This document shows positions 2,424 through 61,300 of a stretch of DNA of 64,000 nt, piece after piece. The position numbers and the translations under genes were made by a program. Source of the DNA: Styela clava. Its lineage: Eukaryota. Positions within the stretch are counted from its first letter, which is position 1, and each line of letters opens with the position of its first letter. The notes beneath the pieces were generated by a model. It saw nothing but the letters and a program-made list of their open reading frames with translations. It ran no database searches and had not been told where the DNA came from. The DNA lies in contig NC_135257.1 in the NCBI RefSeq assembly GCF_964204865.1, forward strand, positions 7,316,001-7,380,000, written 5' to 3'.

Positions 2424-5400
2424 TCATTGTATGACGACCCTCGATGTGTCAATGGTAGCTTTTATGAAAAGCGTATTATTCTTGATGTAATTGTTGTCTT
2501 TCAGGTCTTTGTGTGTAACAAACTTTGGATAACCAAATCCGAGATTAGAACCGTCGACATCGGAATCTTTTCGACGAATTTCTGGATCTTGGAAGTTTTT
2601 CCAGTTTGGATCAGGAGTGAATGTTACATTTATATGACTGCGTTTAGAGGAAAGTGGATCTCCCTGCAAGTATAAAATACAAAGTACATGAGATTGGCGT
2701 TTAAAATGGAAAAGTACAATCAATATGGTTTAGCTTGGTATATGCAAGAAAAGTAGACGAGTATTTGAATAACTGGTTAATTCAATTTATTACAGTATAA
2801 TATGAATGGATCCACATTAAATTCAAAACTTATGCCAAATTTTACAGCACGTTGATTAGATTTTGTAAAAATCACTAGAAAATGTTATAGGAAACATACA
2901 AAAAAAGAAAACCCATAAGAAGACAATATTTTGGCTACGTCATGTCAGAAAGTAATATTCATTGAAGAATCAGCACACGTCAAGCCAATTGTTAAGCACG
3001 TTCCATGTAAATCTCCTCACTATTAATAAAGCTACTTAGCTAAATTTACAAATTTACCTGATCAAGTATTGTGAATGTAATATCATGAGAAAACGGCCAT
3101 TCCAAGAGAGAATCGTATTCTCCATTCAGAACTCGAACATACAAAGACAAGTGCGATCCGTGACCGCCACCATTGCCATTGAGAAAGGCTGATAACTGAA
3201 GTTTATAGCCGTGTCTGTGGGTGTAAAACGGCGGGCTGATCAGCTCAGCTTCTGCTTGGTCTTTTTGAGCTTGCTGGAGAGATTTTGTATATTCTGGTAT
3301 TCTCCACAATAATACACCGTTGTGGCTAACAGTTAAATCGCTGACCTGAAAGACAAAAATACAGGTTTAATTATAATATATTGGAACAAAACTCACAAAA
3401 TTTCTTCATCAATAATTGGTAAATGCGGGCGGGCATATATCAGTAGGGATATGCAAGTATGTATGCACAAATAAATAATCAGTTGGAAGAAAATTCCAAA
3501 CCTGTGTGTACACTCTTATATACTGTATATGCGAAACATTATGTTTCTCAACCATTCGGAAAAATGTAAAATAGTGAATGGTGTTGTATTTTACTCAGTG
3601 AAATTGCAATTATATATATTTTGCGAAATAGTAGAACCACTTGGATAATTCTGAATCGATATTATTTACAATGCAAAATCATTTAACATTAAGCAATATG
3701 TATGTGTACAATAGACATCAGTATAAATCAACACCCATGTTGAGTTTTTAACATCAGAAATTTGCATTTAACGCCCCCCTGTGCATCTGGATTCTTTTGC
3801 CGGCAATAGAAACATATTTGCATATACAAACCTGTTTTTGTAAGGTTTCGATTTGTCTCTTCTGTGTTCTTACAAGTTCAAACATAGTTCTCATGTGCAC
3901 GTTCTGATTTTCTGTTAAATGTCTATCGAGATGATAGCGAGGACACTAAAAAATATATAAAAATAAAAAAGATAAATTTAAATAATAAAGATAAAATTTA
4001 TAAAGATAAACAAATGAAGAATAGGATAAATCTCTCATTTTTGGACACGAAAGAGACCTATGGATCGTTTTCTTATTACGTCGTCGTTGTTGTCGTGATT
4101 GTTGATAATTTTCTTATTGTTGCTGTGAAAAAATCGCTTTTTCCATCAATTACTGGGTGAACATCCATTTATTTATTACTGCTTTGAAAGATGGTGTTGT
4201 CGCTAGTTTTCTAAATATGGAAATGGAAGCAAATAACAACTCAGCAAATCACATAAAAGCTTATACCCAGAAATTGTAAGTTACGCAAAGAATGGCAGTG
4301 GGTGTTCAGTTTTGTACATTATGATAAAATTTATATAAAAGAGGGTTGCATAATAGTTTAACCTTTCCTTAGCCAAATTGTCACCTATTGCATAAGATGA
4401 CAAAATATAATTACACCGATGACAAACCGAACCGAAGATAAGATCGTGGGAATATTTTTCATAATATGAAATAAAATAAAGAATTTTACACCGCACAATC
4501 CGCACTGTATGTAGTACAAATTTATGATATAGGATTTTATTAAAAGTTTATATTATTCTAAAGACCTAAACTAATTAACGATTGCATCATTGGGATCAGA
4601 TTCTTATCAGCATGTCGCCTCGCCTACCACAAACAAAAATGTTATGAGAAACTTATATTTTACCAGTGGACTGATTACCACTAAAACTAAGAAATAGGTG
4701 ATTGACACGACAGTCCTCCAGGGCTGGTCGGCGAGTAGTAATTTGTTCATTTATACGCACCGCACATGTTTGGTCAATACATGGCTCACGCTGATAGATA
4801 ACTGTTTGTGATTTCTATTCACCAATTTTTCAATGTATCAAATATAAAACAGAAAATATTAGTACATGCCGATGAATTACGCTGGTCAGCGCTAGGATCA
4901 ACCTATATGTACGTATATCACTGGTGTTTTTTATCGTTATCTATACAACGTCTATGCCATTTGTAGTATGCAATTACTAGTAGTTTTGTTAAATTTTACC
5001 AATATTTTTGACTTCTTTTAAACTCTTAACTCCTTTAAAAATGTATTATCTATTATCAGCAACATGGGCAAATTTAGCAATATTTTCCGCTTGATACTGT
5101 TGACTGACCCTTTAATTAGGTTTTAAGATACACAAAAGAGCGTTGAAATTATCTTTCGATAATGCATATTTCTGTTGGATATTCGCAGCTGGCTAATGGG
5201 TTACTTCATTCGCATGTTAAGTACATTTTTTCGTGGTAACGATTTTGAAAACGCAGATAGTGAAAAATATTTTGAAGACTGGCTATGAATGACAAACCTC
5301 ATCCAAACAAGTCTGTATAGGAAGACAATTGGGCTCGATACCAGAATGGTCAACCTGGTACCCATAAAAGAAATACATCATCACACTTCATTTAAACACC

Positions 5401-8400: not shown

Positions 8401-11400
8401 TGAAAACTCCAATTTATATACATTGCTAGCAAACCGAAGTACTGTAGAATTACTTTAGCACAACGTAGTCACTCTCAGAACCTTATTTGTCAATAAAAAT
8501 TGATTATCGCCTTACCTTATGCTTGCATCCGACTTCTTTGTACGGGCATGCTGTAACAGCTGCTTTGCAATGTTCTTTCATGTGGATCTCTAATTCCTCA
8601 CGTGGAATTTTAAGGACATCACAACGATTTGGACAACTGATTGGATAACGAGGGCAATTCCCAAAATGAGTCTGAAATATGAATATACGTTTTAACGTTT
8701 GATAGAATAAAAAGAGTTTGTCATTAAAGTATATACGGTATACATAAATTTCCTCACAAGCAATGTGAAAAATTCCGCAATGTTATCTATATGACATTAC
8801 TGAGGAGTTTTATGTATAGCAATTTGGAAACAAGCTTAATCGTGTGCAACTACAAGTTCCTTATTTCGAGTAAAAGCAACCTTGACTCGGAAGTATTCAC
8901 CTTCAAAATATCAAAATTGAAGTCTTTATCGCAGTGTGGACATTTTGTTGGTCGTTTAGGGCAATCTCCGGTGCTGTGTCTTGCCAGATACTTTCTGAGC
9001 ATTTTAGCTCCGCATTTGTTTTCGCAATGTACGCTTTCCATTGGGCAGTTTCCTTCGTGATCCTCAAGCTATAGAAATAAGAAAAAAGTTTCGTTAATGT
9101 ACATGAGCATATGACAGCTACTTATCCCTACGAAAGATTTATTTTCATGTGTAGCGTACCCAACTTATTACATCATAGACATTTATAATCCCATTTTTTT
9201 CGTGAGACATACATTTTTATAATAGAAATTAAAATTAACGATCGGTTTCCAAGTCATTAGTTAAAGTTGGTTGTGGTTGTTGTGTGTTAGTATTGTAGTG
9301 GTTCGAATACCATTTACGGACCGTTGGCTTTCTTTTTGTGGGCAATTCGACTCGACCGTGGCCTTGAACAAGTATTTAGTATGACGTGACTTCCTCGAAT
9401 TGCTTGATTGACTTTGAAAAGACGATCGAATCAAATTACAAGTTAAAAATGATAGTCAGTGTCAGGGAGTGATGTTTTGGCCTGGTTAAAGTATCCACTT
9501 CATTTTTAAAATCGCTGAACCTGATACAGTAGGTATTCATATAAAATACAGAGAATGGTGTTTCAATCCAGTGTTACACAGTGCTGCACAAATGCACATG
9601 TTTTTAGATGATTCCACGTGATTTTCTAGGGCGAGATATGTAGGTTAACAACTAAGAACGACATACCTGTTCTCCCGAAAAATCCTTCGAACAAAATTCG
9701 CATGTTACTCTTCTCTTCACACACACATATTCCAGATGATCGGCTAATTTTGAAGCTCGCAAGCGAACACCGCATCGATTTGGACAGTCAATTTCACTGT
9801 GACTGCATTTCACGATATGGTTCTAAAACGTAAAATTTTTGAAAAATGAAGATATTGATAAAACGAGTTAAAATAGGGGTTGTTGATAACTATGAGAACT
9901 TTATATAAGAGTATGTGACAATAAAACAGTATAAACTCATTTTGTAATATGGTATTGGAATCTTGGTGAAACCTATACTAAGAATCCAATCCTAATTTTT
10001 ATGCTTCATATAAAACTTTTCACTTGAATCTTTTTCAACTATGTTTGAATTGTGAACCCTTTTCATATGTGGATCGAATGCTACCTGAGGTGCGTAACAA
10101 ACAATAGTTAGTTCACTATACGACACCACAAACGCGTACCTTAAAAATTCACAAAAATCACCTATTTCTTAATTGAAAAATTTGAGTAATCTAATGTTTT
10201 GCCACAAATAACATTCATTGATAATGCACCAAACAGCCAAAGTTTTCCATTTTTATGAACGTGATGGAAAAACTGGGAGAAAATAGAAAACAACTTTAGC
10301 GACAATACAAGGACAGTCTTATGACTGGCGATACATGATGTGCGTTTCTTATATAAAAAGAGAAATGAATTAGGATTTTAATATAGTGACGGCGAATCTA
10401 TATCAAATGACAAACACGATTCAGACAGGGCGGGGGAGTAATACCCGACGATTTGTCACTCCGTCACAAGCTGGCGTCATGTGCGTCACGTAAAATTACG
10501 CAGATTTGACGACTAAAAAACAAAAATATTCTAATTTAAGTATAAATAACAGATATGACATCGCGATTGACTACCTATATTTAGTAGTATCAGTTTACAG
10601 AGCTAATTAATAACTTAGTTTCCAAACATTGGCAACAAATTCACAACACCCTCAACACGTCTATTCCGCATTATTACAAATAGATGACGTCATAAATGTC
10701 CATCCTTAAGGTCATTGCTTTAAAATCTGTTTTTTTTTATAAGAGGCAAAATTTTTATACAAAGGGACTGAGTTTTATTGATAATACATTATTACAAAAA
10801 GAACAATTTCTGTGAAAGATCACACAATGGAGAAGACACAGATTGCCAAGTTCGCTATAAATATTTAATATTTCAATTGTCGGCGAGTGTTTAATGTTAC
10901 CGCAACACGTTCATTAAAATTCCTTCCGTAGAATACATTAAAAAATTATCGTTCGGAGTTATATTGTAGTATGCATGGGCCAAAGTAAACTCGTACTTCA
11001 ATAGCGCGAAATATTCCTGGCCATACTATTGTAGAACAAGACTTGATTATTAAATTAAATTTCTTGAAAATAACCACAAAATCGGCCGACGTCGCTTTGA
11101 TCTGTTTTACACCTGTTATTTGCATTTCAACGCCTTGCTGCTCTTTGCAATTTTGCTATATCCGCACACAAAATTAGATTATTTGAGCCATGAGTTCCAA
11201 TATTAAGAATTCAGCTTTACCAAACTCACGATAATACCATGTTAGTCAGTGAATTACCTAAGAGAGATAGATTAATATGGCATCCTTTATTACGCCTTTA
11301 CTTTGCCAGTTTGGGAAATGTTCTATATTTTTTGAACGTAGCAAGTTTCGAAATTATGAAACATTTCTCGTTGAAGAATACAACTATGTTCCGAAATATT

Positions 11401-26400: not shown

Positions 26401-28708
26401 TTACTCGCGTCCGTATCAGAATTGAATTCCTAACATACCTGTGTCAAATAATTCCTATTGATCAGATAGGGCATTTTTGTGTTATGTTCTATTTAAATGT
26501 ATCGCATGTTTTGATTTGCCCGTCGTTGATGTCTTTACTCGAGAGCCGACTTACTCGACACCTATTAAGGTCAAAATTAACTAAATCGAAATAAGGTTTT
26601 CAAATCTTGTATTATCAAAACAAAGTTCATTCTATTACTAGGATATACGCAATCAGCGAAACTCATCCCTAGCTTTATGAACAATTTTTTTTTGGATTGT
26701 AAGTAATTATACTTGACAACACCTTCGTCAGCAATGGTGGCACGCGTTTCTTTTTAAAGCGGCTTCTAATCGAGACTATTTACATATGAACTTGAGCAAG
26801 CTCGCTAGGTATGAAAACGTTCACCAGACTTGAAAACATTTTATCTTGAAATAAAATCGCCGGTAAATTCGTTATTGACAAGTTGAATCCCAGATGTGCC
26901 AGGCACAAAAGAACAACATACATAGCACATTTGCTGACTTTAGTAAACGAATCGTGCATACACAAGTCACGGTAATCTAATTAATACTTAAGTTCAAATC
27001 CAGCGAAACTTTCCGGTTATAAACAGTGGCTCTACTGAATAACAAACGATTTAAAACTACGATCTTATATTTTGTATTTCAGATTTTTTTAATAATGCCA
27101 ACTCCAAGTAAAACCCCACCTTCATGACGGTAGTTTTTGATGTAAAAGGCATTCCGATTCTGAATACTGATAATATTATTTCATTTTTTTGCAATTTGCC
27201 TGGCGCCGTACATCACGTTGTGCAAAACATCAAACGAATGTAATCCAGGGGACATGGGATTTCAGTTCAGTTGTGTGCAACAATCGAACCCAGATCCATA
27301 TAAGTAACAACTAATCGGCTTAAAAGAATAGATCATGTGTCACTTCGGGTAACAAAAAATAACAAAAGGCACGTGATAGACGGGCTTGTGATTATCCACA
27401 CAGACAATTTACTTTATACTCTAACTTTCTGATTAGTTAAACGCGAAAAGATCGAAATGCAGACTGAAATTAATTGTCTGGTTCTAATACTATTAAATGA
27501 CTAAAAATGGCAAAATTTAGAAGACAGTTGCCCGAATTCTTGAAACCTCTGTTTCAAATGAAATCAATTATAAAATTTTTCCAAATAAATTTCACGAGAT
27601 ATGGTACTCGGGTGGCCTATATGCACTCACTGTAACGTGAATATTTAAATACGCTGTTACAATCATGTTTTCATTGATTTCTGTTTCCAAGTAAAATAAA
27701 AGGTGAAATGTGAATGAAAACCCCGCGGCATACAAAATTCTAAAAATGCACTTGCGATGCGTGTCGCAATTAACCCTGCACAGACAAGCCTAAACACGCC
27801 TGGATATGCGCCAGTAACTACAAGCATTCTTTGTCTGGTTTTCGTGGGGAAAAGAACTTTTTGAAAAATGATCATATGCGTTCACGGTAAAAATTGGTAC
27901 AAGAAATAATGAAACTGCCAAAATTCTTCGAATTTTGCTAATTACTGTTTGTTTTATATTTTAATACATGAGCAGCATCTAGATGAAATCTAAATTTTTG
28001 GTCACGGTTATTCTTATTACTTATTTTAACAAACGGTCGGTACGAATCAAGTGGCAGAAATAACAAACTTGGTTAGGCTAATATTATCCCGTCAAAACTA
28101 TTTTTTCAAATACTCTGAATTTCACGCACGAGTGTGAATATTTCTTTCTCCGAATATTGAAATCGACTCCAATAAATTGGTTAATGTTTTACTTTTTATT
28201 TATATATATGCGAAGTTCTATTTGATCGGCTGTTATTGGCGCCAGAATGAAACGGCGGACATAAAAATATACCTGCAATTAAATATGGTATGCCTAGTAT
28301 ACACAATTAAAATGCAATTTAGCCATGTACATTTGTCATATTTAATATGCCCAAACCTGTTTTCATCAATAAATTATACAATAAATCAGAGAACGCGCGC
28401 AATGTCACAATAAAAGTCGTGGTCATATATATAATTAGCACTATATTTATTAACAGCAACATGTGTAACAATTGACTATAAAATGACAATAAATGGAACA
28501 AGTAACCGCTTCTTATCAGCTCCCTAATCCAATCATGAAGGCAATAAAAATATAGTTCAACTCACCCAAGGAAATCTTGTAGACATGTGTCACAAAAACG
28601 GTGCTTGCAGGTTGTAATTTGGACGGGGTCCTTTATCGGCAGATGACAGAGAGGACATTGGTGCCTCTTACGTACTTTATCAACAAATTTCATATTATAA
28701 CCCGGCAT
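2424..28708 (-). CDS. TRAF4: TNF receptor-associated factor 4 (RING C3HC3D, TRAF zinc fingers, coiled coil, MATH/TRAF-C domain), 473 aa, 9 coding exons
   Basis: Exons (minus): 28566-28708, 18933-18984, 12511-12615, 9667-9822, 8901-9068, 8516-8671, 3832-3945, 3058-3345, 2424-2663. All introns are GT-AG and phase-compatible; total 1422 nt, ending in TGA. Translation: MPGYNMKFVDKVRKRHQCPLCHLPIKDPVQITTCKHRFCDTCLQDFLGAGVFNCPVD (TRAF4-type RING ending CPxD) ... CENKCGAKMLRK ... FYTHRHGYKLQLSAFLNGNGGGHGSHLSLYVRVLNGEYDSLLEWPF ... TFTPDPNWKNFQ ... LGFGYPKFV. These motifs match vertebrate TRAF4. Confidence 0.96.
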
Positions 28709-30652
28709 TTTGGACGCCAATGTTTGAAGTACGCTGGACATAAAGAGGTTTGAATTTACCCCTAAAAATGCAGATATATCCTCGATAAAATTATACTATA
28801 TATAGCAATATTAATAAGCTTATTTCTAAGAAATAAAGAGATGCATCTTGAATCGAATATTGACATATTTAATATCTCGATCGATATACTAATAGCTGCC
28901 GGAATGTTACTGAACTATTGAATTTTTTTCAGTAATTTTATCTACACGGCACAGAACTCTCATGCTCACCAACTTCAAATCACCGAGTAGGCTACTAGAG
29001 TAGCTAACTTAGTTAGTAATTTATGAAGCTACCGTACAGGTTGTCACTGGCGATTAACACTGGGCTAGCTCTGAACTTTACATATATTACTAGCTGTAAT
29101 TATTCCACAGCTGCTAACACAAGTACGCAGCAACAACAAGTATTTGAACATTATATTGTTGTTTCGTTTCGCTTTCACACTTCCTGCATCAGCTTTCATG
29201 ATAACAATGGCTCTGCAGCAAGTTCCGACTGCGTAACATTAGGAAATCGCACCCCGTCAACAACAAAAGGAAGTGACAAATGTAAACCTGAGAAGTAACT
29301 GTCGCGAGAAATAATTTGGCATCTGAAAACACTATTCAATATTCGCTATCCATCATTTAATGTCGACACACCTTTAGATATTATTTCACAAAGCGATCGC
29401 ATCTTCGCTGTCGTTACGCCGCACAAAGCGTGACTAGCAAACCCGTACGTCGACTTTCTCATACGCTGCGAATATAATGAGAAATACCGAAGTACATAGT
29501 CCAAGTACGAGTTACCCAAAATTCCCCAACGCTTAGAAAGGCCATAATTCACTAAACATGCGACGTTTAACTAAATAAGATAATAGTCAATGACGTTCGG
29601 AATGTCCACTTCATTTTATTCAAATCACGGCTGGATATTTTTATCATGAATAAGAAGAAGAACTTGTTTGGCACTAGAAACTCAAGTAAACATACCCTTA
29701 AACTAACCACGATTACCTATATTATTTAAAATAAGTTCATTTTATGTAAGAGGAGAAAGTACACAAACAGGCAGACAGTCTGCACCAAATGACTAAATAT
29801 GCAACAACCCGCTGTGAGAGCAAAACCAAAATGCCAGTGCTAGAGTTAACTCTATTAAATGTCTGCTTTCAGGCTATTATTGACATTTTTACGCTAATCA
29901 CAGCTGGAGCTCCTTACAAGTCCACTGCGTTTCTCTGCTATCTGAGGCTATTAAAATTCCCATGTGTAGTGTATATTAAATCCCTATTTAAGACATCCGG
30001 ATGAGCGTAAAAAGCTACATAAATAACGAGCTTTGCAATTTTCAGAAACCCATGATAATCCGTTTCAAAATTAGGTCACCACCGCGCAAATAAATTGATT
30101 CCAGGTTTTGATATTCTCGCTTTGCGTCTCCAAGTGCTGAGCGATTCAAAGTAATAACGCCCCCGCCATTCTGTGTCTCAACACCCATTATTTCCACACA
30201 CACGATAGGTCGAATAAATAATGAGCAAACACAAAGGATACGAGGGTGTGCATTACGATTCGCTGGCCTTTTCATACAAAGGTACCACGCAGCGTTTTAC
30301 ACACTACGCCTGCGCACTGTTTGTAATATTTGCCTTCGGGCGTCCCTTCTTCTTGTCAGTGCGTGACGAGCGATCGGGCGAACCCTTCGTTTGAGCTGAG
30401 ATCAGCTGAGCGGGTGCGTATAGCTCGAAGTTCAATCGTGAATGCGATGAAATCCAACAGCGCCACCACAGTATCTAAAAAAAATAAATGCGATATCAAG
30501 TAGTGCGGGTTTGGAATCTTACGCAGTAGACCGGTACTGCAGTCTTCATGACTTCGATTGGATCGAAATTCCAATTTCAACTTATTTTTTAGGTATATGT
30601 CAACCAATAAGAATGTTGCTTTCATGATTACAATTTCCTATTATAACTTAAG

Positions 30653-34133: not shown

Positions 34134-37100
34134 TCAATCATCAGATCTATACTGTGGGTGCTCTTTCAGCCAGTCATTCAATTTGCTGGGAAAATCCGTC
34201 ATCACACCCGTTACACCTAGTTTTTTATATGCTCGTTTGAAATCTTCTTCGTCATTGAGCACCCACAGGTAGACCTATGAAATAAATACAAAATAAAACT
34301 AAATATAATCGTCGAACGAAACTTTCGATGAAACAACACAAAGGTATATTTAAATTAGCATGTAAATGTAAAATTGTTATTTCCACTTCCAATGTTAATC
34401 ATTGTATTGCATGTATAGTGTTAAAGATAGTTGCGTCAGTTAGTAAAGACTTGAATAAAACTTCCTAATATAGAAATTTCTGCAACCAATAAGATATATG
34501 CAGTGGTAAAATTTAATAATTCTTATGCATACCCACATACACGTTAAAATTGTAAAAAACCTTCTCAGAGTGGTTCAATTTTATACAACAAACTTTCCCA
34601 ATGAACCAAACACTATAATCTCTATGACTATGAGTTTAATCCTACATAACACACATAATATACCATACTCACATTGATTCCTCTGTCTTTGAGGTGTGTG
34701 AATAACACATTACTCATCAGAAGAAAATCAATAACAGCAAACAAGGCTCGTATGCCACAAGACTCCGTCATTGATGGATTAAATCTGAAAAGGAAGAGGT
34801 TATGCTTGATTGCAGCAGCGTACGTGTGAGTAGGCACAGACCATATCGATGTTTTTATACCAGAATAGTTTGTTGTGATTTCTGACCAAATTCCTTGGCT
34901 AAGAACTAATGGGTTGACTTTGCCTAAGCAATTGTTATAATAACCCTTTCCTATTTTTCAGCAACATCTTGAGGTATGCCAAATTCATGGCCCACCTCTG
35001 GATGTAATATTTCAAGTGCAATATCAAAGTGATTATTTGTATCAAAGCTTGTCTAGAAATGTACAAATTTCATTTAAAAAATCTCCACCCTAAAAAACTA
35101 ACTCACACATACATCCCTGAAATATTCTAAAGACATATTATACTAAAATACATAGTGTACTGGTACGGTGACCGTACATTTGAACCCATGTACATTTGAA
35201 CCCATGCGTATATCCACGGGTTCAATCTATATGCGGGTGCTAAAACCCATGGGTTATGGTTAGTATGGGTTTAACTATCCGTGAAACAAAAAAAATTCCA
35301 TAGGTGCAATAGCATACAGGTGCAATTGTCATGGGTTCAAATGTACGTGGGTTCAAATGTAATGGAACCTACTGGTACTTATATTAGTACTAAACTTCGG
35401 CAGTGCATTATATTCTAACATCTATAAATATTTACTTACGCTTTTCTTGCTATATTAGGCATTATTACAGCAAAACAGGATTCTTTGATAGGTAGGAATG
35501 GTAGGAGTCCAAGATAAAATGTAAGCACTGTGAGTGCAACTCTTTTCATTGAAAACACAAGAGGTATATTTGGATTCTGAAAAATTGTAATTGTACAACT
35601 TTAATTAAAACAAATTGCTGAAAAAACGATTCACCCAATGTATTACTGTATCAATTCTACATCTTGATGCACAAACTATTTTATTATGTAGGTTTAATAA
35701 TAATCTAAAATGAACCATCTTCAACATAGAAAACTAGCACTAAAAATACTGTTCTTTTGTCCCAGGTTTGTAATGAAGACATCCCTTCATAACCGGCCTT
35801 ACAATATATTTTAAAGTTGGATTTTGAATTAAGAGATTCGAGAATTTGCTTAAAGCAATGTCATACATACTCTCTCAAAAAAGGTTGTTCATACTCACTC
35901 AAAGGTAAAGGAGATATATATCTGAGCAAATTTAGGGGAACCATTACATGCAAAGAGTAACTGGTGTGTTATATGCCAGGTAATTGGCGCCAGGCAAATT
36001 GACTCAAATTACGATGGTTCTGATAATTCAGGTGGGATACATAACAACCAACTTACTGTTTTATACAATTTTGAAGTTACTTTGTTTGAAAAATTTCCCC
36101 ATGGTGTAATCTCTTCTCTGTTAAATTTCCTGATCAGATTATTTGTCTGAAATTGATACAAATATTTTTCAAGGAAACAATATTCACTTTGATATTGGAT
36201 AAATCTTATGCAGCTTTGAATTGGCGGTCGACACTAAAAAATTCCTTTTTCGCAAGCTAATTGATCAGTAAGAGCAATAACTCAGTAAAAAGGGATTTTA
36301 GAAACGACAAGGCACACAACAGACTACACTGTGAATAATTTTTTGTCCATACTCGATAAAGTACATTTATAATAAGCACAAATATAATTTACGACTGAAA
36401 CATTTACCTCTTGAATCAATTCCTCATCATATATTTTGACATCAAGATGAATCGGAGTGTTTGGAAACTCCTGGAACACATCTTCCAGTTTTTCTATTTG
36501 CAAAGCATTCCCCTCGTGATGACAAGTTGTGTGATAATGGAATGTGACTCCCAATTCCTTACTTAACAATGGAAGATCCTGTTCAAAAGTCGATCAAAGA
36601 ATTAGTATTGTTATGAAATGAAGCCTACCGTGATGAAGGTTATTTTTTCAGAAGATTTTGTAACTTAAAATTAGCAAGGGTGCAATACTCAAATAATGGG
36701 AAAAAAAAACTTTTAATTTTTCAACCAATTTTCAACATTTTCGAAAAACAACTACCAGTCTACCACATTTTTGAGTTTGACACATATTTACAAAAGTCGG
36801 TAATATCCCATTATAGATAAAAAAAAGTTTAATTTCGTCAACCATTAATTGACCTTACCTAATTCCGTAATAATAATTACTGGAGTGACAGTAAATTTAA
36901 TAAAAGATGTGCATATTTTATCTACAATTGTTGTCATTATAGAATGTTAGATATTAAATATCTTGCAGAATCAACAGGGGATACAAATTTCTAATTTATT
37001 TTCAATGTATACATTTGGTAAGCAACTATTTTTTACCTCGTATTTAGTATCTTTGATATGAACATCTTCCCCTGTGGTCCTGAGTAAATGATTATCATGA

Positions 37101-38066
37101 GACACAACAACAACTTTATCCGCAGTGAGGTGAACATCCAACTCCAACATCTGTGTACCACATTCCATTGCACTGAAAAAAAAAACAGTATACAAAACTA
37201 TACATTCTTAAAATTTACGTCTAATGATAAATTCATCGTTCCAATTTATTTAATTTGACGATCATTATGCAAAATAGAAATAAGCCTGATTACGAACACT
37301 GCAATATAGCTGCAAATTTTTCCTACATATAAAATAAATTTGAATTACGGTAAGTCCGGTTCATTTCATTTAATAAATGAAAATTTTACTAGCATAAAGA
37401 GTACAGTAGTCTATTTTAAATAACAACTTGAAATGCACAATTCTAAAATGCAGACCCAAAAACTCACTTTCTATATGCATTACAAGTGTTTTCTAATTTT
37501 TCCGCAGCTCCTGAATTGAAAGTTATAATATGATTAAACTTAATGATAGATTACACATTTGCTTTCCTAACATCCTTGATATAGTAAAAAGATAGCGATG
37601 ATTTATTTCCTAACACTGCAATACAATAACAAAATACACAAATACTGAAATAGGTACAAACATTGCAGTGAGAAATAATGACAATAACTTTTGATAATGG
37701 TAAGGGATGAGTAAGCTAGCGGAACTCTGGCTTGGAGGTCATGATTTTTGGCTTCGAATCTTTGTGTTTCACTGAAAACTTTCAGTTTTTAACATTTATT
37801 AATGCACTGATGACGATTCTATACATAAAAAATTCCTAGAGCTCAAGTAGAATAGAGTTAAATATAATAATAATAAAGTTATAACAGTTAACGATACGGT
37901 ACCGAATATTGTAAAATAACATACCTCCTCTGTGACTAATGTGTGAACATTTAAAGAGTAAACGTTTCTTCTTATATATGATAGGACATTTAAGAAAAAA
38001 AATTGATGTCAATATATATCCTCCAACACCAGCAAGAACATAATATCCAGGGTTAACGCCAGGCAT
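34134..38066 (-). CDS. GDPD1: Lysophospholipase D GDPD1/GDPD3-like glycerophosphodiester phosphodiesterase (GDE4 family), 323 aa, 8 coding exons
   Basis: Exons (minus): 37925-38066, 37468-37510, 37037-37172, 36408-36578, 36057-36146, 35440-35576, 34673-34784, 34134-34274. GT-AG introns, phases consistent, 972 nt. N-terminal hydrophobic segment followed by ISHRGGAAEKLENT, MLELDVHLTADKVVVVSHD, FPNTPIHLDVK, WGNF, HLKDRGINVYLWVLNDEEDF, GVTGVMTDFP, which are GDPD catalytic motifs of the GDPD1/3 subfamily. Confidence 0.93.
35167..35369. mobile_element. MITE with 9-bp TSD (Mutator/MULE-like) in GDPD1 intron 6
   Basis: TSD TACTGGTAC at 35158-35166 and 35370-35378. GG...CC termini. Inverted, tandemly repeated TACATTTGAACCC subterminal motifs and a central GGTTATGGTTAG motif. 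Confidence 0.85.
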
Positions 38067-38153
38067 GTTGAAGCGCTTTATCGAAATGGCTTTGTGCTGA
38101 AATAAATGGCGCACAAACCTTTTTGCACGCGCAAACAATATCTGCCGAGTCAT

Positions 38154-38251
38154 AGTGGTGACTAATGGGAACGCATAGAACTTTCTCCCTCAATCAAAAC
38201 AAAGTGGTGACTAATGGAAACGCATGGAACTTTCTCCCTCAATCAAAACAA
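38154..38251. repeat. 49-bp tandem duplication just upstream of GDPD1
   Basis: AGTGGTGACTAATGGRAACGCATRGAACTTTCTCCCTCAATCAAAACAA at 38154 and 38203 (2 mismatches). Confidence 0.9.
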
Positions 38252-42121: not shown

Positions 42122-45100
42122 TTAATGGGTAGCTGAATCAAATCTGCTTTGCCTCTCTTGTAAATCCTGTATTCTAAGATCTTTCAGGCGAAGGAGATGC
42201 TCAAGACGACTGATCTTTACCTAAATATAAACGATCACATATTTCAACATTAGACAAAATACAAACTATCACAAAACAATGTTATTAATGAAACATAGGA
42301 CAAACAGCAAGAACACGAGTTGGAAATGTCTATGCATGAAACTAAAAAAGCAATGCAAAAATGAAAAGTAGGTACAAGTCAAGCTATGTTTTATATAAAA
42401 TCCCAATGCTTGTATTTAATTAATTCAAACTATTATTATATGTATGAAATAAATTAAAACCTTCTCTGACATAATCACATCTATTATGCATGTATCATGT
42501 TATAAATTAATGAACTGCAGATATACCAATTAACTGGAACCATAATAAAGGGTAAATAATATTATATAAATAGCTTGAAAGAGATTGGGAATATCATTTG
42601 TGCATCAATTTACTCACCTGGAGAATCTGAACAGTTTCCATAGATGCTAAAAGTGCTTGTTCCTTTTCTTCTAGTATCAACCTTGTCTCAGTATCAAGCA
42701 TATCAAGGTTCAGCTGGCTCAAAGGGACTGGATTCTTAACTATATACTCAGGAACCTGTGGAAGTAAACAAGAACCAATTAATAAAAACTAAATATGTGG
42801 GTGCAGTATGCTGGGGTGTTTGAATTTAATATTCGAATATCCTTTTTAGTATTTATGAAAATATTGAATATCGCGTAAATAAAATTTATGTGGGAGATTT
42901 TAGAATGTATTCAGAATTCCAGATTTGTATATATTTTCTTAGAATTTAATTGAAATAGGCAAGTATTTAGTTATGTCTATCCCTGGCAGTATGTTTTACC
43001 AAATTTCTAATGATTAATAGCAATGATCAAAGCAAGCTGATAACAATAGTATGGATTATCATTGTAGTGCACACATGACCTCTATTGCACTATGCAAGAA
43101 AAATCAATGTTTCAATTACATTTAAATAATAATTCAGCAATGACAGGGCTTACTCTACTCAAATAATCCTTGAATTGAGAAAAGGGACTTCAAAATAATT
43201 TGGGTCTGTGTGACAAAGTACTTCTGGTTGAATAATTTCGAGTATTTTCAATGGAATGAATTAATACATCCTTACAAGCAGGTGTTGAAGTCAAATTAAA
43301 AGTGGGTTGTCTCAGTAAATATTTTAAGAGTTTTCAAGAGCTCCTATGGTTTAAATATCAGACAAAAACTAGACTTACAACGTTACAAGCATCAATCATT
43401 AAGTAAATAGACATGAAATGAAACAAACATAACCATGTCCACTGGCCCTTCAGATAGTGGAGAATAACAATAAAAAATTGTAAAAAAATATTGCTTAGCA
43501 TACTTTCAACAGAATAATTATAATAACAAAGATGTTAAAATAAAGGTAGCTGTAGGTAGAGAAATCAGATCATATTAGGATTAGAGTATATTGGCCCATT
43601 TTCCACTTCTTGAGCTTCAGTTGTATCATTTGGTTCTTACATCACGTTTCAGTGATAACATAAAATTTTGATAGTCTTTTTGTTAGCAAAATATGACCAT
43701 GTGGAATGGATCGTGAACGGAAAAGGAAAAACAATGGATTTCCATAGAGTCTATAAATTCAAATTCATGTGAGAACTATCCAGAATGTATAAAATGGACT
43801 GAAAACATTATGTTAATTCAGCCACAAGTAAAAATCAGGCATCATCCAGGTGAACAATACATGTAAAAATACATAAGAAACAAGGTATTATAATACCGAG
43901 TCCCGTCTTGGTCGACTGACCATGCTTTCTCCAGTCCTGCTATCAACATCTGGCCCACTCGATCTTGCATTATAATATGGTCTTTCTTGATAACCTGAAA
44001 AAATAATTGTGAAGAAATATAAAATTTAAAATAAATTTATCATTTAAGTGCTCATATGATATGCATGTTTAAAAAATTTCATTGTTGAAAATGAATAAAA
44101 TACTTTCTAACTGAAATGAAAAAATGCTAAAATAAACCATATTATAAATTAGCAAGTATACCTCCTATCTTGCTTCCTGTCTTGATGATGTATTCTTCAA
44201 TTTTCTGCCATAAACCAAACAAGAACACTTCCATCACTCGTGGTTTACATTCAGATATCTCTTGCATTACTGATGCGGGTATAGTGAAGTTCAATTTCGA
44301 CAAAACCTAAAGAAAATTAAAATTCTTCAACTAAAAGCTAGTAATTTCATGAAATATTAGTTTAACGTTTTTCAGAGATGAAAAATATGAAATTCTAAAT
44401 CCAGGGCAATATTCACTTGTAGGATGATGATGTAGATATAATAATTTTGATATTTAAATTGGATATTGAAATTTAAGTTGGAAACGAGAACAATATATTA
44501 ATACAAGCTTATATAAATAATTGAATCAGAACATATGCTGCAATGTATAACGGAGATATTTTAAAACGTTTAATGATGCTTAATTTGATAAATATGTAAT
44601 AATTTTAATCGAGTCATTTAACACCAATTGCAACCGGTCTACGTCCCCATATTAGATGTCAGCAGATTTTGGAATCAGTCTGATATAATGTTCAGATTAC
44701 TTAAATAGCAAATTTGCTTTCTTTGAATATTTAAAAGCATCTATTCCATCTATCATGTACCGGTATCTGATAATGTAATGATGCAACACATATCAGTTTG
44801 AATTTTGAGGCAATTTATATATCAACGATACAGATGAAAAAGCGGAATTGAATTCGTTTTGCATATATTCCATGTATACTAACATGGTCGAAAAGCTCAA
44901 GACATGGCAAACTTAATTAAAGATCATAAGTTTGAAACTGCAATTAAAAACACATCTGTCCTCTGCTTTATATGTAAGATGTTCAAACTGTAATTAAACT
45001 GAAAATTTGGTAGTCAAAAAATTTTACAGCCATCAATAACATCGAAGAAGGTTTATATATCACTGACTTACTTTTCTATTCAGTGTTTGCCAGTTGTTGA

Positions 45101-45296
45101 GTTTTTGATTTGTAGAATTAGCACTGGTGTAATTATGCATTTCAACAAGCCGTGGAATAAAATGCCTTACAACTTCAGCAACCAATATTCCATCACTAAA
45201 ATCTCTTGCAACAGACTTTTTCTTTCTACTCAATGGAATCACGTCGATCCATGAGTAGAGTTTTTGCAATTCTACTTCACTGAGTTCAGAATTCAT
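42122..45296 (-). CDS. SPEF1: Sperm flagellar protein 1 (CLAMP): N-terminal calponin-homology domain, C-terminal coiled coil, 234 aa, 5 coding exons
   Basis: Exons (minus): 45072-45296, 44162-44306, 43897-43994, 42618-42755, 42122-42220; 705 nt ending in TAA. LYSWIDVIPLSRKKKSVARDFSDGILVAEVVRHFIPRLVEMHNYTSANSTNQKLNNWQTLNRKVLSKLNF is the CH domain. EEKEQALLASMETVQILQVKISRLEHLLRLKDLRIQDL is the SPEF1 C-terminal coiled coil. Extra small exons in the 42756-43896 intron cannot be excluded. Confidence 0.93.
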
Positions 45297-46174
45297 GTTT
45301 CAGTATTCAGAACGTTTAAACTATACCTAACAGGTACTATCTAAATTGAATGTGATATTTATGAATATCATAAAACAATTCATTTTGTGTAATGCAGAAC
45401 TTCTCCCACATACTGACATAGTAAAGACCTTGGAACTGGTATATAATAGTCAAATCCATATATTAGCTATACTGGCTATGCCCATAAGTAAAGATTTACC
45501 TAGTTTGGATTTTCATATTTATCTCAAGGTAAGAAAAGTCAATGACAATAAAGTTCAAGCCATGAATTCCTGGCTACCAGTACCAGTTCAATTTAGCTGG
45601 CTGGATAAGGAAAAAAGAACTAACACACAACACAAGATAATGTTTAGGGAAAAAATAATGTTTCGGTCACACACGCACAGTCATTCATGTTTCAAAATGT
45701 TGTTGATAAAAAGACTTAATAATGACAAGGTAAGCCTATGGCAATATGTGCTAGCTTCTGAGCTTGTTGCCAGCTTATTTCAACAATACACAAGACAGAC
45801 AGAGTAGGTATGTTAGAAAAAATCTAACGTTCATCTGATTTAAAATAAAACTGCGCCAATGGATAGAGCTAAGTGAAAATAAGAAAACAATACCAAGTTC
45901 GGAACAAAAAGATATTGTGAACAGAAAAACTTAATGAAACAAAGTTTACAAATTTTTTTAAATAAATTAGCTGCTTTTTAATTAAATTATGTAAGAGGAA
46001 GTCTCTGAATTTCACCTAACCTCTGGTCGGCAGCGGCCTCCACTACGCAAGTCCACGAGTACGCAGTAATCAACTGATTTATCACTTTTCATATCCGACC
46101 TTATTTAATGAACAATTTATTTACCATTCAATATTCCTCAACTCGTAAGCAATTACAGCAAAACAAGAGAGATC

Positions 46175-55335: not shown

Positions 55336-58300
55336 TTATTCACAATGGGAATGTTTTTCCAGACTTGCCAATATTGAATAAAAGGATAGATTATGGCGGT
55401 GTATAGTATACTCAAAAATACAAACTTGAGCTCTTTTAGAATCCCGCACCAATACTGTATTTTTCTTGAAGTCTTTGTCTGAACACACTAAAAATGTATT
55501 GTTGAATACCGTGTTGACGTTGGGCACTGAAAATAAAACTTTGTTGTGATGATGCAGACATAAATAATGATTCGTACACAAAAACATGCAGTTATACACA
55601 CGGAAATTATCGTTGAGTGCCACTGATAAAAGTTAAACCATGCAAAGTTTTCCTGCGGCGTGTGATGAAGTATAGCATGTTGTAATTCAATTCGATACTA
55701 GTTTTTCTTAATCAAATTTTTAAAACGAAGTTTACATGGGACATCCTGGAAATCAAAATAATTTAAGCTAAACTAGTTATTTCGTTATACAAAATTTAAA
55801 CGTTACCTGGTCTTCCCCCACATCTGATGATCAAATCAGACATCGTTTCTTGTTTTGCGCCAACTTTCTTATCACGTAACGCTTCAGACACAAGAATGTT
55901 TTGAGCTTTGAAAACACTACAATAAAACAGTCTTACTTTATTCGCTGATTACGTCTAGTTCATTTAATGGGTGCGTAATGCAAAATTTAAATATATAACT
56001 CATTTTTTGTATTATTGCATATAAACTTTGTGTGATACCCATGTATCAAATCACAACTCTGTTTAGCTGTTTGCTAAGACTCTTGCATCACTCTCTTGGA
56101 ACTTTACAGTCAACTATCATTATGCAATTTACAAGTGAACCATTTCACATTACATATATATTCATATGGGCCCCTACAATGAAATGAACAACAACCTTGG
56201 AGGAAACCAATTAGAGATTGTTTTTAATATAATTGAGTTGAAGCGTTAATTAATAGAGGTGAATGCATAACTGACAAATTAGTTTCAACACGATATGCTG
56301 TCAGCCAACCTATTTACCTCGTAGTTTGAAACGTTTTCTTCTCCTTCTTGGTGCGTTTCACGATCTGAAGGTGAAGAAATTTACTCCGTTTATTTAGGTA
56401 TTAAATTCACTAGATGTTTACCAAACAAATTTAGGAGATTACTCACAAAAAAAACGAGACTAACATGTTGTGGAATAGTAATTCTAAAATTTTCTAACAT
56501 ATAGCATTCAATAATCAACCCACCTTTTCATATTGTCTAAGCTTCTTTTCAATTCCAGGAGGCAAATATGGCTGTTTAATTCTTGGATCAAAAACCCCTT
56601 TGGCTGTTGGCATTTCTGTAGCTATGGAGGATTGCATTGCAAAAAGTCTACCAAGACTTTCTTCTCTGTAAGTAGAAATAAGCAAACTATTTTCCATTGA
56701 AAATTTTCTAATTTTTGCCGACTTGAAACTTGAATGTCAGAAACATCCAATGAATAGAAATTGATCTTCAAGGAAAATATAGCCTAGTTTCGTATTGATA
56801 CCTCGTTAATTCAAAAGATAGCAGTCGTTTGCGATTGAGTTTATAAAGTTATTCCAAATAGCAACTCAATGATTTGAGTGATGTTTAGTATCAGATATAC
56901 AGCTCTAAATTAAAATCGGTCCACTCGACTCAAGTTAATCTGGTGAATAATTTGTATTGCTTACGCAAACATTTATCACTAAAACCCAAGATCTTACAAT
57001 CTTTATAAACGTACGTTTTAATAGTTTTTCCAAAATTAAGTTTCTTTATCCAGCCATCAGCATCATCGTTGAGTTGTTTTGCATATTTACTGCGATCTCC
57101 TAGAATAATCGTATATTGTTTTTTAATTTCATTGATTTCTAAAATTGCATCTTGGATTGCCTTCCCATGTCCTTTCATATCTTCATTGCTATATGAAAAT
57201 AAAGTTGAATTTTTTGATGTACTGGTTAATTTCACTCTACATCAGTGCTCTTCAACAGGGGTTCCGCGGAACCCTAGGGTTGCTATGCAGTGGGGTTCCG
57301 TGAGTTTATAGGGTTCCTCAGGGGTTCCGCGTTTTTTTTTTTCAGGGGAAATCATTTCTTGCTTCAGCATGTTGATGCGTCATTATAAATATACTTAGAC
57401 CACCGTGTCTCATTCAAACTCCCAAGTAGGCCAATTCGTTAAACAGGAGGTTTAGTCACAGTGCAGTTAATGGACAAAACAGAAATATTTTCGGTTACGG
57501 ACAGTGCAGTTAATAGACAAAACAGAAATATTTTCGGTTGTTGCGTCACTTTAGTCATTGTTATGCAACAAACAAGAACGATATTGTTGCCCATAGTTAC
57601 ATGATGTACAAAGTATGTAGATATTGATTGGGTTTCTACAAGACCAACTACTTTTTCCATTTTCTATGCTTTTGCGTCGGTGGATCCGTATGCATAGAAT
57701 GCAAAGATGCTGTAGCAAGAGTGGAGATAACTATCCTGAGTAATTCGATAAATAGCCTTGCTGGTTGCTGCACACTACTAACCCAAATATATTTCTGTAA
57801 CGTTTCGTCTGACCAAGGTCAAACTTCCTCAGACATGCTTATTTTAACTAAAGCAAGAATAGCAATTGTATAATTTACCATTCTTGCTTTAGAAATATGT
57901 ATGTCTGAGGAAGTTTGACCTTTGCTCAGACTAAACGGAACCGGAATATATATGTGTTAGTGTGCAGCGAGACTCTTTATTGAATTACTCAGGATATGTA
58001 GATATTGCTCGAGACAAGAGAGAGTATATACTACAAAATAGAGTTGTTGTTCAGCTTTTCGTGTTACGAGTATTTCGTGTTTTTTTTTTATTCTGTTAAT
58101 TGGGGTCCCATAAAAAACGAAAAATTATATCAGGGGTTCCACAATAACAAAAAGGTTGAAGAGCACTGCTCTACATATAATCGGAATTGTAAACTTAACA
58201 GTTATATAAAAAAATCTCATATAGGATTTTTAACATAAGTACAAAATGCTGTATATATATACACACAGCATAACCAGTCGGCAGCCAATTGGATAGGCCG

Positions 58301-61300
58301 ATTATGGAGCAAAATATTCAATATTTTAACGCAACATTCGTTATCTAAAATATGATTTTAGGCGAACATAGAGATATAGCCTATAGTGCCCTAGTTGATT
58401 TAGACTAGAGTACACAAGTATTGCCAAATTGCTACAAGCCCAACTTACATAATATAATATTCAGCGTTATTTATTCCGATCATGCACATTTTTCTGTATT
58501 TTTCTTCAGCAATACAAACGAGAGAAGTCTGAGCTTCTATCCAATTGACGTTAACTGTTTTTTGAAAAATTGTGAACGACGATATTTCGTCCATGATACT
58601 TGCTTCGTGACCTGAAATTTAATACAATTTACAATATACAATACAATGTACAATATTATAATTTTACAATATTTCTTTCCGATGTCGGCAATACTAATAT
58701 TTTTCATGTAGAATTATCGAAATTTGACTATATGGTTATATTTTGGCCCTCCCTTTTAAAAGCCTACTACTACAGCAAAACCATCGTAAAACTATAAATC
58801 GATATCAGATTTTAAAATTATATTGCTTATCGTTGGTTCAGACCAGATTAGTTTTTTTATTTCCAACAGACTGTTCGTTCAGTCTATTGTCTTCTATGTT
58901 AAATCAGTAATATGTTTTTACCCTTTCTCTCTCCCGTTTTTTCGTTTTTGCATTCGCTCAAAGTTTTTGTGCATAGGATCACAAAATCATCTATATTCTG
59001 TTTATTCATCTTGTCGTCAAGATAACTGACTTTTATATCGACAATATGCTGCTCATCCAACTCCTGTGTAGAAAAACAGATAGATATTCATTCTAAAAAA
59101 GGATTACATTACCCCAAATTGTTTACTTTTCACGTTGCTTTATAACGTTGGAAACATTTAGTTTAGACCAAACAACATAGCCTACCTCCAATTCGTTCTG
59201 AGGCAACACGAGTGTAAATGGAATATGCTTCTTGGTATCTTCTGGCATTGCATGTATGAAGTACTTCAGCATCCTTCCAGAGGATTCCTGTAAATGTATA
59301 TTATATATTCATAATATATTTGTTTTTATAATATATTGTATTCAATATGGCCAATCCGGTGTTCAAAACAAAAACCCAATGATGTTAATGGATCAATACT
59401 GTGTTTCAGATCTTACCACCTAATCAAATTAATACGATTCCACAAAAATTCCAAAATGTTAATCCAGTCACACACAAAAACATAATCGCTGGACAATGAA
59501 TTAGCACATGTCAAACTGGAAACAAGAGTTTACTTGAATGAATAGTCTAATGATTTATTCGCTGATGACTACACAAATTTTCATATACATTTTCTAGTTT
59601 TCGCAAAATAATATTTATATATGCACTCATCATGTGGACATGCATTCATGATGCAGTAAAATGGCAAAGGAAAGAGCCAAATATTTGCCACATAATGCAA
59701 TTTTTTGAATTTGACAGAACATCTCATTGTAGTTCTCATTGTGATTCGGTCATATGTGACTGATGTTGAATCGTTGGCGCAAAAACGTCAAAACCTTTGT
59801 AATTCAATAACACAAGGAAAATAATCCTATCACAATTACCAGTAAATGTTTTCCAGAAATGTGATTCTCATCGAAACTAACTCCTTTCAAGCAGTTCATG
59901 TCGATACTGACATCGGTAACTCGAGTTGTTTCCCTGGAAACATTGTACAAAGTTTGTGTTCTATTTTTTATTGTTATCGGTATTGAACAAGTACATTATA
60001 CCCTTCCCAAAAACAAACAAAAGTCTACGCGTCTATGGTTACGAAGCGAGTTCGTAGATACCTGTTTATGCAAATCAGAAAAGATAGCAAATATTATTGA
60101 CATGATTGTGTATAATTGCTTTTATATGTACCTAAGAAATACAGGTATTAGCATGTCAGCCTCAAATTCCTCTTCTTCGTTCAACCAATAAAACGCATCA
60201 CTTCCGAGATGTCCTGCAATCTGAAATATAAAAAACAATTCCGTCGAAAACGAAAGGCTAGTATTTCAAAATCAAAGAGTTGATATTGTAAAAAAAAAAT
60301 CAACCCAGATTTTAAAATATCTCGTAATTTACTCGAAATTAGATCAATGTACACCTATATGCTAAGAAAAAAATGAACGTGTATGTTGCTATCTATTGCC
60401 AGTGGCGCATCTACGTAAAAAGGCGCCCATGTCAGAGTTTGAAAATGCGCCCCATTGTTGTCGGATTGAGATATTTGTACGTTAAAATTTACGTAAAAAT
60501 AGGAGTTTCAATTATTTCCATTCGGAAATTATTTTATTGAAATATTTCATTATTAAAACATTTCGCCCTTTTTGCGTTTCAATCCAAACGGCTGCTATAA
60601 CCTAGATAGAACACTGTCTATAACAGCCAAATCTGACGACTTGAAAGAAGATGAAAATCGAGTAGGGGGCTTTTGTTAAAAGTTTCATAGCTGGCTATTG
60701 ATTTAAATAATTGATGTAGCTTCGGCCATATTCTGTCAATGAATGATTTATATTATATCAGTGGACCGTAGCAAATTGTTTTGGCTAATTGGACTATTAT
60801 CAAAACCATTAGCACTCCTAGTTCCTATTAAAATCTGGATAGAACTTTTGCAACGTATCAGTTTACCTCGTTCAGCAACACTGGTGCGTATTGACCGATT
60901 GTAAATGCGGAAATCGGTACACAGCTAGTTTTATTCATTGTCTTCTGATAATTTCTGTATTTGATGACAAGTTGCTCCGGATCTGTTTCACCCAAATTGG
61001 CCATTCCGTCCGTGAATACAATCATCAAATCTCGATCATGCTTTCCAGAATCCCTAGATAATAAGGTACGTTACAAAAACGTAAGAAAACGAAACTGTAA
61101 ATTTGTTTTATGGAAGCTCACTGTTTAAGCACATGTAATCCTGTCATCAATCCAATTTCAAGATTAGTTTGACCTCTTGTATGAAGACTTCTAATAACAT
61201 CTTTTGCTTTAGTCTGAAAATATATATATACAGATATACGTACAAACATAGATGGTATGGCCCAATATTATTTCATTGTGTTTACTGTTGAATAATGGTC

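Follow-up and report, generated by a model that had tools for sequence, protein, structure and literature searches.

A Penelope-like element fragment with inverted hammerhead motifs, multiplied as cargo of a likely hAT MITE in the genome of Styela clava

Minimal hammerhead ribozymes of Penelope-like elements (PLEs) have been described as dual motifs that lie ∼100-700 bp apart on opposite strands, with cleavage that is absent from monomers and weak in dimers (PMC4209133); the dimer work of Lünse et al. is cited here by way of PMC6765202. PLEs with an inverted 5' copy and a one-sided tail of 30-40 bp are described in PMC8557442 and PMC3846280, and according to PMC11167929 the tail is linked to reverse transcription that starts at two internal sites. 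The formation of inverted PLE ends is treated as unsettled in both PMC8557442 and PMC11167929. Here we describe a locus of Styela clava in which a pair of such motifs lies within a MITE that itself occupies the intron of a host gene.

The window, by which we mean the whole stretch of 64,000 nucleotides analysed (G000:C9:7316001-7380000), belongs to a genome of 377 Mb. Elsewhere in it, minus-strand exon-like frames at 2427-3366, 8507-9068, 28565-28795, 36012-38189 and 45063-45299 resemble, by their motifs, putative TRAF-type, glycerophosphodiesterase and calponin-homology proteins. The foldback of about 265 bp that the initial annotation placed at 57732..57996 is present, with an energy of -134.9 kcal/mol (z -16.1) that none of 200 shuffled sequences equals. 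Its left arm contains, on the minus strand at 57796..57835, an intact minimal type I hammerhead motif laid out exactly as had been claimed: a CUGAGGA box (57832-57826), an extra A after it (57825), a 7-bp stem II (57824-57818 with 57813-57807), a GAAAC box (57806-57802) and a GUU triplet (57801-57799), closed by a stem I of 3 bp (UGU/ACA), with a predicted cut site between 57799 and 57798. The right arm carries on the plus strand, at 57902..57942, a motif that is degenerate, again as described, with CTGAGGA at 57905, TAAAC at 57932 and GGA as its triplet; G12 and U16.1 are altered, 1 nt has been inserted in stem II, and the cleavage triplet is gone. The left motif thus has the CUGANGA and GAAA boxes and an NUH triplet, and the right one departs from this consensus at G12 and U16.1. 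The sole other CUGANGA...GAAAC match in the window, at 8800 on the plus strand, is chance-like.

The arms are copies of a PLE terminal repeat set head to head. When the genome was searched for the left arm, the 40 candidates scored of 1343 contained 51 matches, several of which are paired in direct orientation at a distance of 3.4 kb and have an inverted copy upstream. One of them, L031, is a 4409-bp insertion with a 14-bp duplication, in which a 977-codon open frame lies between two repeats. GIY-YIG is above the Pfam cut-off in this frame, and both RVT_1 and GIY-YIG are above it in the frames of L032 and L040, which are 99% identical to L031; in the Pfam scan RVT_1 was not reported for the L031 frame itself. 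Both window arms map to the L031 pLTR with 88-90% identity, in agreement with the assignment to PLE termini made previously, and the intact left motif differs from that of the full-length PLE copy by a single loop-II base. Between RT and EN, the L031 frame has at residue 844 a Cys motif that agrees with the Neptune/Nematis zinc finger as defined in PMC8557442, and by this linker zinc finger the element would be of the Neptune/Nematis type. Near-identical intact PLE copies occur in the genome. In L032 (1307-9004), L173 and L174 the arms continue across both the repeat junction and the hammerhead site and reach the preceding unit; the template was therefore longer than one unit, or circular, and uncut at the hammerhead. 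Beside the PLE in L033, a minus-strand frame of 516 codons (1351-2898) has Pfam matches to YqaJ-like and alkaline exonuclease domains.

Covariance models were of little help in judging the motif. With the Rfam hammerhead models there was no match at E<=10 in the window (24 matches, none hammerhead), the check that the initial annotation had proposed, nor on the intact full-length PLE copy (2 matches, none hammerhead), and the scans returned only sub-threshold miRNA-like hairpin matches; because the intact full-length copy fails too, the negative result does not discriminate. The motif occurs in the pLTRs flanking the RT and GIY-YIG frame in L031, L171-L175 and L177, and a descriptor scan detects it within repeats belonging to four PLE families, with RT regions ∼100, 80, 69 and 63-65% identical to that of L031. 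Across eight aligned copies from the four families the boxes are invariant except at N7 and for one C3 change (L188), so that the CUGANGA and GAAAC boxes are kept among these PLE copies. Of 96 cells in the hammerhead pairing 97.9% are paired, as compared with 23-38% in slid controls, and double-sided changes occur in 4 of 12 pairs (stem I contributes one, stem II two, and the 15.2-16.2 palindrome the fourth), a number reached by 10 of 500 shuffles; a single divergent family (2 rows of 8) accounts for most of these compensatory changes, which therefore represent few independent events. In a folding model without tertiary contacts, the dimer hammerhead geometry scores -14.3 kcal/mol, and the most stable fold of the dimer -31.3 kcal/mol. 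Judged by its conservation and covariation across PLE families, the motif is a real PLE hammerhead.

The extent of the PLE insertion differs from that of the foldback. It is 368 bp long (57627-57994) and flanked by a 13-bp direct repeat, the target duplication, at 57614..57626 and 57995..58007. The arms had been recognised correctly in the foldback, but since the 13-bp repeat bounds 57627-57994, the coordinates 57732..57996 miss the tail of the left arm. This tail (57627..57732, minus strand) comprises 106 bp of 5' leader, is unpaired and present in the long arm only, and matches L031 3544-3649, the ends being r3649 and r3543. It is followed by the pLTR part of the left, long arm (57733..57868, minus strand; the long arm as a whole is 90% identical to L031 3419-3654), a spacer forming the hairpin loop (57869..57879), which has no PLE-reference match at that point, and the right, short arm (57880..57994, plus strand; 88% identical to L031 3428-3545). 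Compared with one another the two arms are 77% alike. With its pLTR homology, inverted arms, target duplication and one-ended tail, the insertion fits a 5'-truncated copy of an EN+ PLE.

The element that carries this insertion is a MITE of 926 bp (57243-58168) with 14-bp inverted ends (57243-57256 and 58155-58168) and a perfect 8-bp target duplication (57235..57242, with TA at positions 4-5, and identically 58169..58176); the insertion divides it into a 5' part with subterminal GGGGTTCC repeats (57243..57626) and a 3' part (58008..58168). A 43-bp tandem duplication at 57458-57539 is peculiar to the window copy among nine aligned. The first 23 bases of the MITE have 77 exact occurrences in the genome, compared with none for a control. 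At 40 further MITE loci we found 25 duplications with at most one mismatch, with T at position 4 in 25/25 and A at position 5 in 23/25, and the target is thus nnnTAnnn, the Buster type as delimited in PMC3517528. Short inverted ends, an 8-bp duplication, lack of coding capacity and many copies are the features expected of a hAT MITE.

No parent transposase of the MITE was found among the 150 hAT candidates scored of 1855, and 50 hAT loci compared with the MITE show no homology to it. A promising candidate at L212 and L264, which is 4912 bp long, has the MITE's own ends and includes a 750-codon frame with hAT domains, was rejected as the parent: five other copies of its transposase share only the inner 2.75 kb and have different ends, and since this inner segment has its own ends the transposase belongs to a different hAT, nested in an element of the MITE family. 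A PDB search with the hAT frame of this nested candidate gave no match. Assignment to the hAT group is thus based on the ends and target site, and the carrier is likely a hAT-type MITE; of the earlier description as a duplication-flanked hAT element, the inverted ends, the 8-bp duplication and the nnnTAnnn target stand, and a transposase partner is missing from the 150 candidates scored of 1855. L212 (568-5470) and L264 (676-5587), at G000:C9:6.654-6.666 Mb, are near-identical MITE-family elements, each with its nested 2.75-kb hAT, and the nested hAT family has several open frames of 787-788 codons elsewhere. Within a 4276-bp MITE-family element at L285, a frame at 3184-3993 presumably resembles, by its motifs, the endonuclease of a non-LTR retroelement. 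Nested elements are common in this MITE family.

The same insert is found in other MITE copies. The left MITE-PLE junction is spanned by 5 of the 40 matches scored (of 551 candidates), the remainder matching one side only, and five composites is a lower bound. The insert and both of its junctions are common to all five. Four are each flanked by a perfect 8-bp duplication of their own, the fifth, L052, being without its left end, and as no two of them have similar flanks, segmental duplication was rejected as their source. They are 92-96% identical in the PLE part and 93-96% in the MITE part. The 13-mer duplicated around the insert is single in three empty MITEs, L058, L059 and L063, the clean cases among four non-composite copies aligned; the fourth, L061, has a deletion at the 13-mer site. 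From the empty MITEs together with five composites in unrelated flanks, it follows that the insert entered a MITE and was then multiplied as cargo, as the initial annotation had suggested, with at least five filled copies and with empty ones. We consider it very probable that what the window contains is a PLE fragment of the ordinary two-armed kind, which a likely hAT MITE has carried passively into at least five sites. Filled and empty sites are both present, and the locus thus offers a clear example of how a DNA transposon can multiply a piece of a retroelement; in the literature searched (main texts, with few subscription papers) we found no report of a PLE hammerhead pair inside a MITE. 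In the L052 composite (G000:C17:18.749 Mb) both arms have the same two changes, one of them at core G5, and the central spacer is gone, which is likely a case of arm-to-arm conversion in the palindrome.

The composite as a whole lies in a host intron, 57189..58448 on the minus strand. Contigs from two of four runs (X1 and X6, from two studies and presumed to be RNA) join 57188 to 58449 with GT..AG borders, so that the intron claimed at 57189-58448 is supported, with the qualification that the animals sampled may lack the insertion. The description of the host as a vWA gene fared less well than its intron: Pfam vWA_Ro60 is below the cut-off (E 0.027) and the top Atlas score is 0.90, to VWA clusters, and by these similarities the host is probably a vWA-domain gene. 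Since the intron is spliced on the minus strand, the intact motif lies in the sense of the pre-mRNA, as had been claimed, and the antisense arm is made before it. The evidence from the runs consists of contigs, from which neither cut ends nor strand nor editing can be read, and the MITE contigs derive largely from other copies.

Folding models bear out the suggestion that the upstream antisense arm would sequester the intact motif. Stem II has a predicted probability of 0.96 when the left arm is folded by itself and of 0.00 within the foldback, MITE or intron, and imposing the hammerhead fold is predicted to cost 40 kcal/mol, or 38 in the nascent transcript. In these models, masking would follow from normal PLE geometry. 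Because a lone minimal hammerhead is inactive as a monomer (PMC4209133), there is probably little to mask, and the pre-mRNA, which holds one sense copy, offers no partner for a dimer.

An alternative reading sees in the composite a self-masked ribozyme cassette that is being maintained: the hammerhead spread by the MITE would be kept inactive by the antisense arm and, once released, could cleave the host pre-mRNA. The position of the intact motif on the pre-mRNA strand behind an antisense arm that is transcribed first, the strongly predicted masking, the spread of the cargo to five sites and the survival of an intact left motif in the window beside a right motif with several changes are all in keeping with such a device. 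The copies themselves point the other way. In the ten MITE-borne arms, differences from the majority affect 17/400 cells of the 40-nt motif and 32/780 cells of the flanks (Fisher p 0.88), or 15 distinct changes at 40 positions and 22 at 78 respectively, counts that are not independent since the arms share ancestry. The 11 core bases are altered at 7/110 cells, only two of the ten motifs are fully intact (those in the left arms of the window copy and of L054), and three of the five composites have none; outside MITEs, all 11 core bases are kept in 43/48 motif copies from 30 loci, many of them younger. The geometry also recurs independently of any MITE, since free short foldbacks with two intact motifs are present at L126 (326 bp) and L267 (322 bp). 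Added to this are the release cost of 38-40 kcal/mol, a single sense copy with no dimer partner in the same RNA and monomers that were inactive in PMC4209133, and a MITE family that carries other, unrelated nested elements. Since the ribozymes decay at the background rate, the hammerheads in the MITE-borne copies are likely passive passengers rather than parts of a working device, although weak selection may act on the one intact motif of the window. We give the idea of a maintained cassette next to no credence, and as a ribozyme device the locus has no importance, its parts and inverted arrangement being known and its copies decaying.

A role for the hairpin as double-stranded RNA, whatever the ribozyme does, would be of another kind: it could matter as a source of small RNAs against an active PLE family, or as an editing or splicing signal. 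Some ∼120 paired bases (z -16) in a transcribed intron, the near-identical intact PLE copies in the genome, and the L052 arms, where pairing has been kept by the same two changes in both, speak for it. The window arms, just 77% alike, have changes that mostly differ between the two, and identity between composites is much the same in the PLE part as in the MITE part (92-96% vs 93-96%), and we hold a function of this sort to be improbable.

We also compared the ends of PLE insertions in this genome. Among 36 family-1 loci, chosen by similarity to the repeat in a way that favours two-armed bounded insertions, 16 have two opposite arms bounded by an exact duplication of 9-14 bp; the other 20 have one arm or no exact duplication of at least 9 bp. 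L036 and L037 are one duplicated event, and there are therefore 15 independent insertions. Measured from the hammerhead cut, the far end of one arm lies at 161-174 nt and that of its partner at 44-60 nt (21 nt in the duplicated pair) in 16/16, and in 14/16 the tail is 103-127 bp long, about 115 bp. A second family, 69% identical, has four bounded insertions among seven loci, all with ends at 160-167 and 46-50; a third has none among ten loci, with most ends near the same two places. The first ATG is near +200 from the hammerhead cut. An apparent insertion with two short ends, at L034 (2202-5170), was set aside as an inverted duplication that includes flank. In the literature searched, which included few subscription papers, we found no report of a long tail or of a strict pattern of one long and one short end, and supplements may give longer tails; nothing relevant was found there on twin priming in Penelope. 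This census is the more useful result of the analysis, since 15/15 independent insertions and 4/4 of the second family predict how PLEs make their inverted ends, and the intact open PLE frames make an in vitro test of end formation possible.

We suggest that Neptune-type PLEs may prime at two fixed sites that lie ∼50 and ∼165 nt beyond the hammerhead cut, each serving one strand of a staggered DNA cut, in which case every insertion would have a long and a short end, with a tail of ∼115 bp, three times the size published, and short insertions would be born as self-masking hairpins, one of which was multiplied by a DNA transposon; we regard the chances of this scheme as even. At the present locus the PLE enzyme would have made a 13-bp staggered cut in the MITE, and copying of the RNA would have started at two fixed internal sites, ∼55 and ∼160 nt past the hammerhead cut. 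Both copies would have stopped ∼25-35 nt upstream of the motif and then joined, leaving one hammerhead per arm as a by-product. A transposase would later have moved the MITE, with the composite copied to at least five sites, and in the host pre-mRNA the antisense arm, being made first, would pair with the intact motif, which would likely never cut before the intron is spliced out.

The two arms could instead derive from a single cDNA that folded back and copied itself, its ends being trimmed by the endonuclease, with no change to the cargo history. In short copies the starts of the arms nearly coincide (r3419/r3428 in the window, r3438/r3438 in L126, r3504/r3506 in L108), the long arm of the window starts at an 8-bp palindrome, and self-priming at palindromes is argued for in PMC3846280; such symmetric copies are fitted as well by fold-back self-priming as by two primings, and it remains a rival. 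In L036, L040, L043 and L044, however, between hundreds and thousands of bases separate the start of the short arm from the stop of the long arm, which is impossible by fold-back, and two internal start sites, on both strands, are shown in vitro in PMC11167929. We therefore consider a fold-back origin rather unlikely.

The motif resembles the minimal hammerheads of PMC4209133 in its 7-bp stem II, the unpaired base between 9 and 10.1, the G10.1-C11.1 pair, the palindromic 15.2-16.2 without a loop III, its presence in both pLTRs and its opposite-strand pairs; it differs from those of the Schistosoma families in a stem I of 3 bp, where their core has 4-5 bp, and in that the pair sits in a MITE. 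The MITE resembles hAT MITEs such as Mar, as presented in PMC3517528, in short inverted repeats starting with CAG, an 8-bp duplication and an nnnTAnnn target, and differs from them in that a subfamily of at least five copies carries a retroelement insert and that no parent transposase is among the candidates scored. Non-LTR retrozymes (bioRxiv 10.64898/2026.07.22.740005) are likewise non-coding, PLE-derived and equipped with a type I hammerhead, but they consist of head-to-tail tandem units, whereas the units here are head to head, with one motif per strand, and are moved by a DNA transposon; lacking head-to-tail hammerhead units, the window insert is not a non-LTR retrozyme. With the EN+ PLEs of PMC8557442 and PMC3846280 our elements share a single frame that joins RT to GIY-YIG at its C terminus, partial tandems, an inverted 5' arm, a short target duplication, a one-ended tail and a Cys motif between RT and EN, and they differ in a tail of 103-127 bp (14/16 loci), compared with the 30-40 bp published there. 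PAc/Poseidon of Anolis (PMC11167929) is similar in that its ends occupy two fixed positions downstream of the hammerhead and in the cutting and extension of both strands. That study saw no difference between the strands in where copying starts, whereas the sites in Styela clava lie before the first ATG (∼+200), are ∼115 nt apart and are used once each in every bounded insertion.
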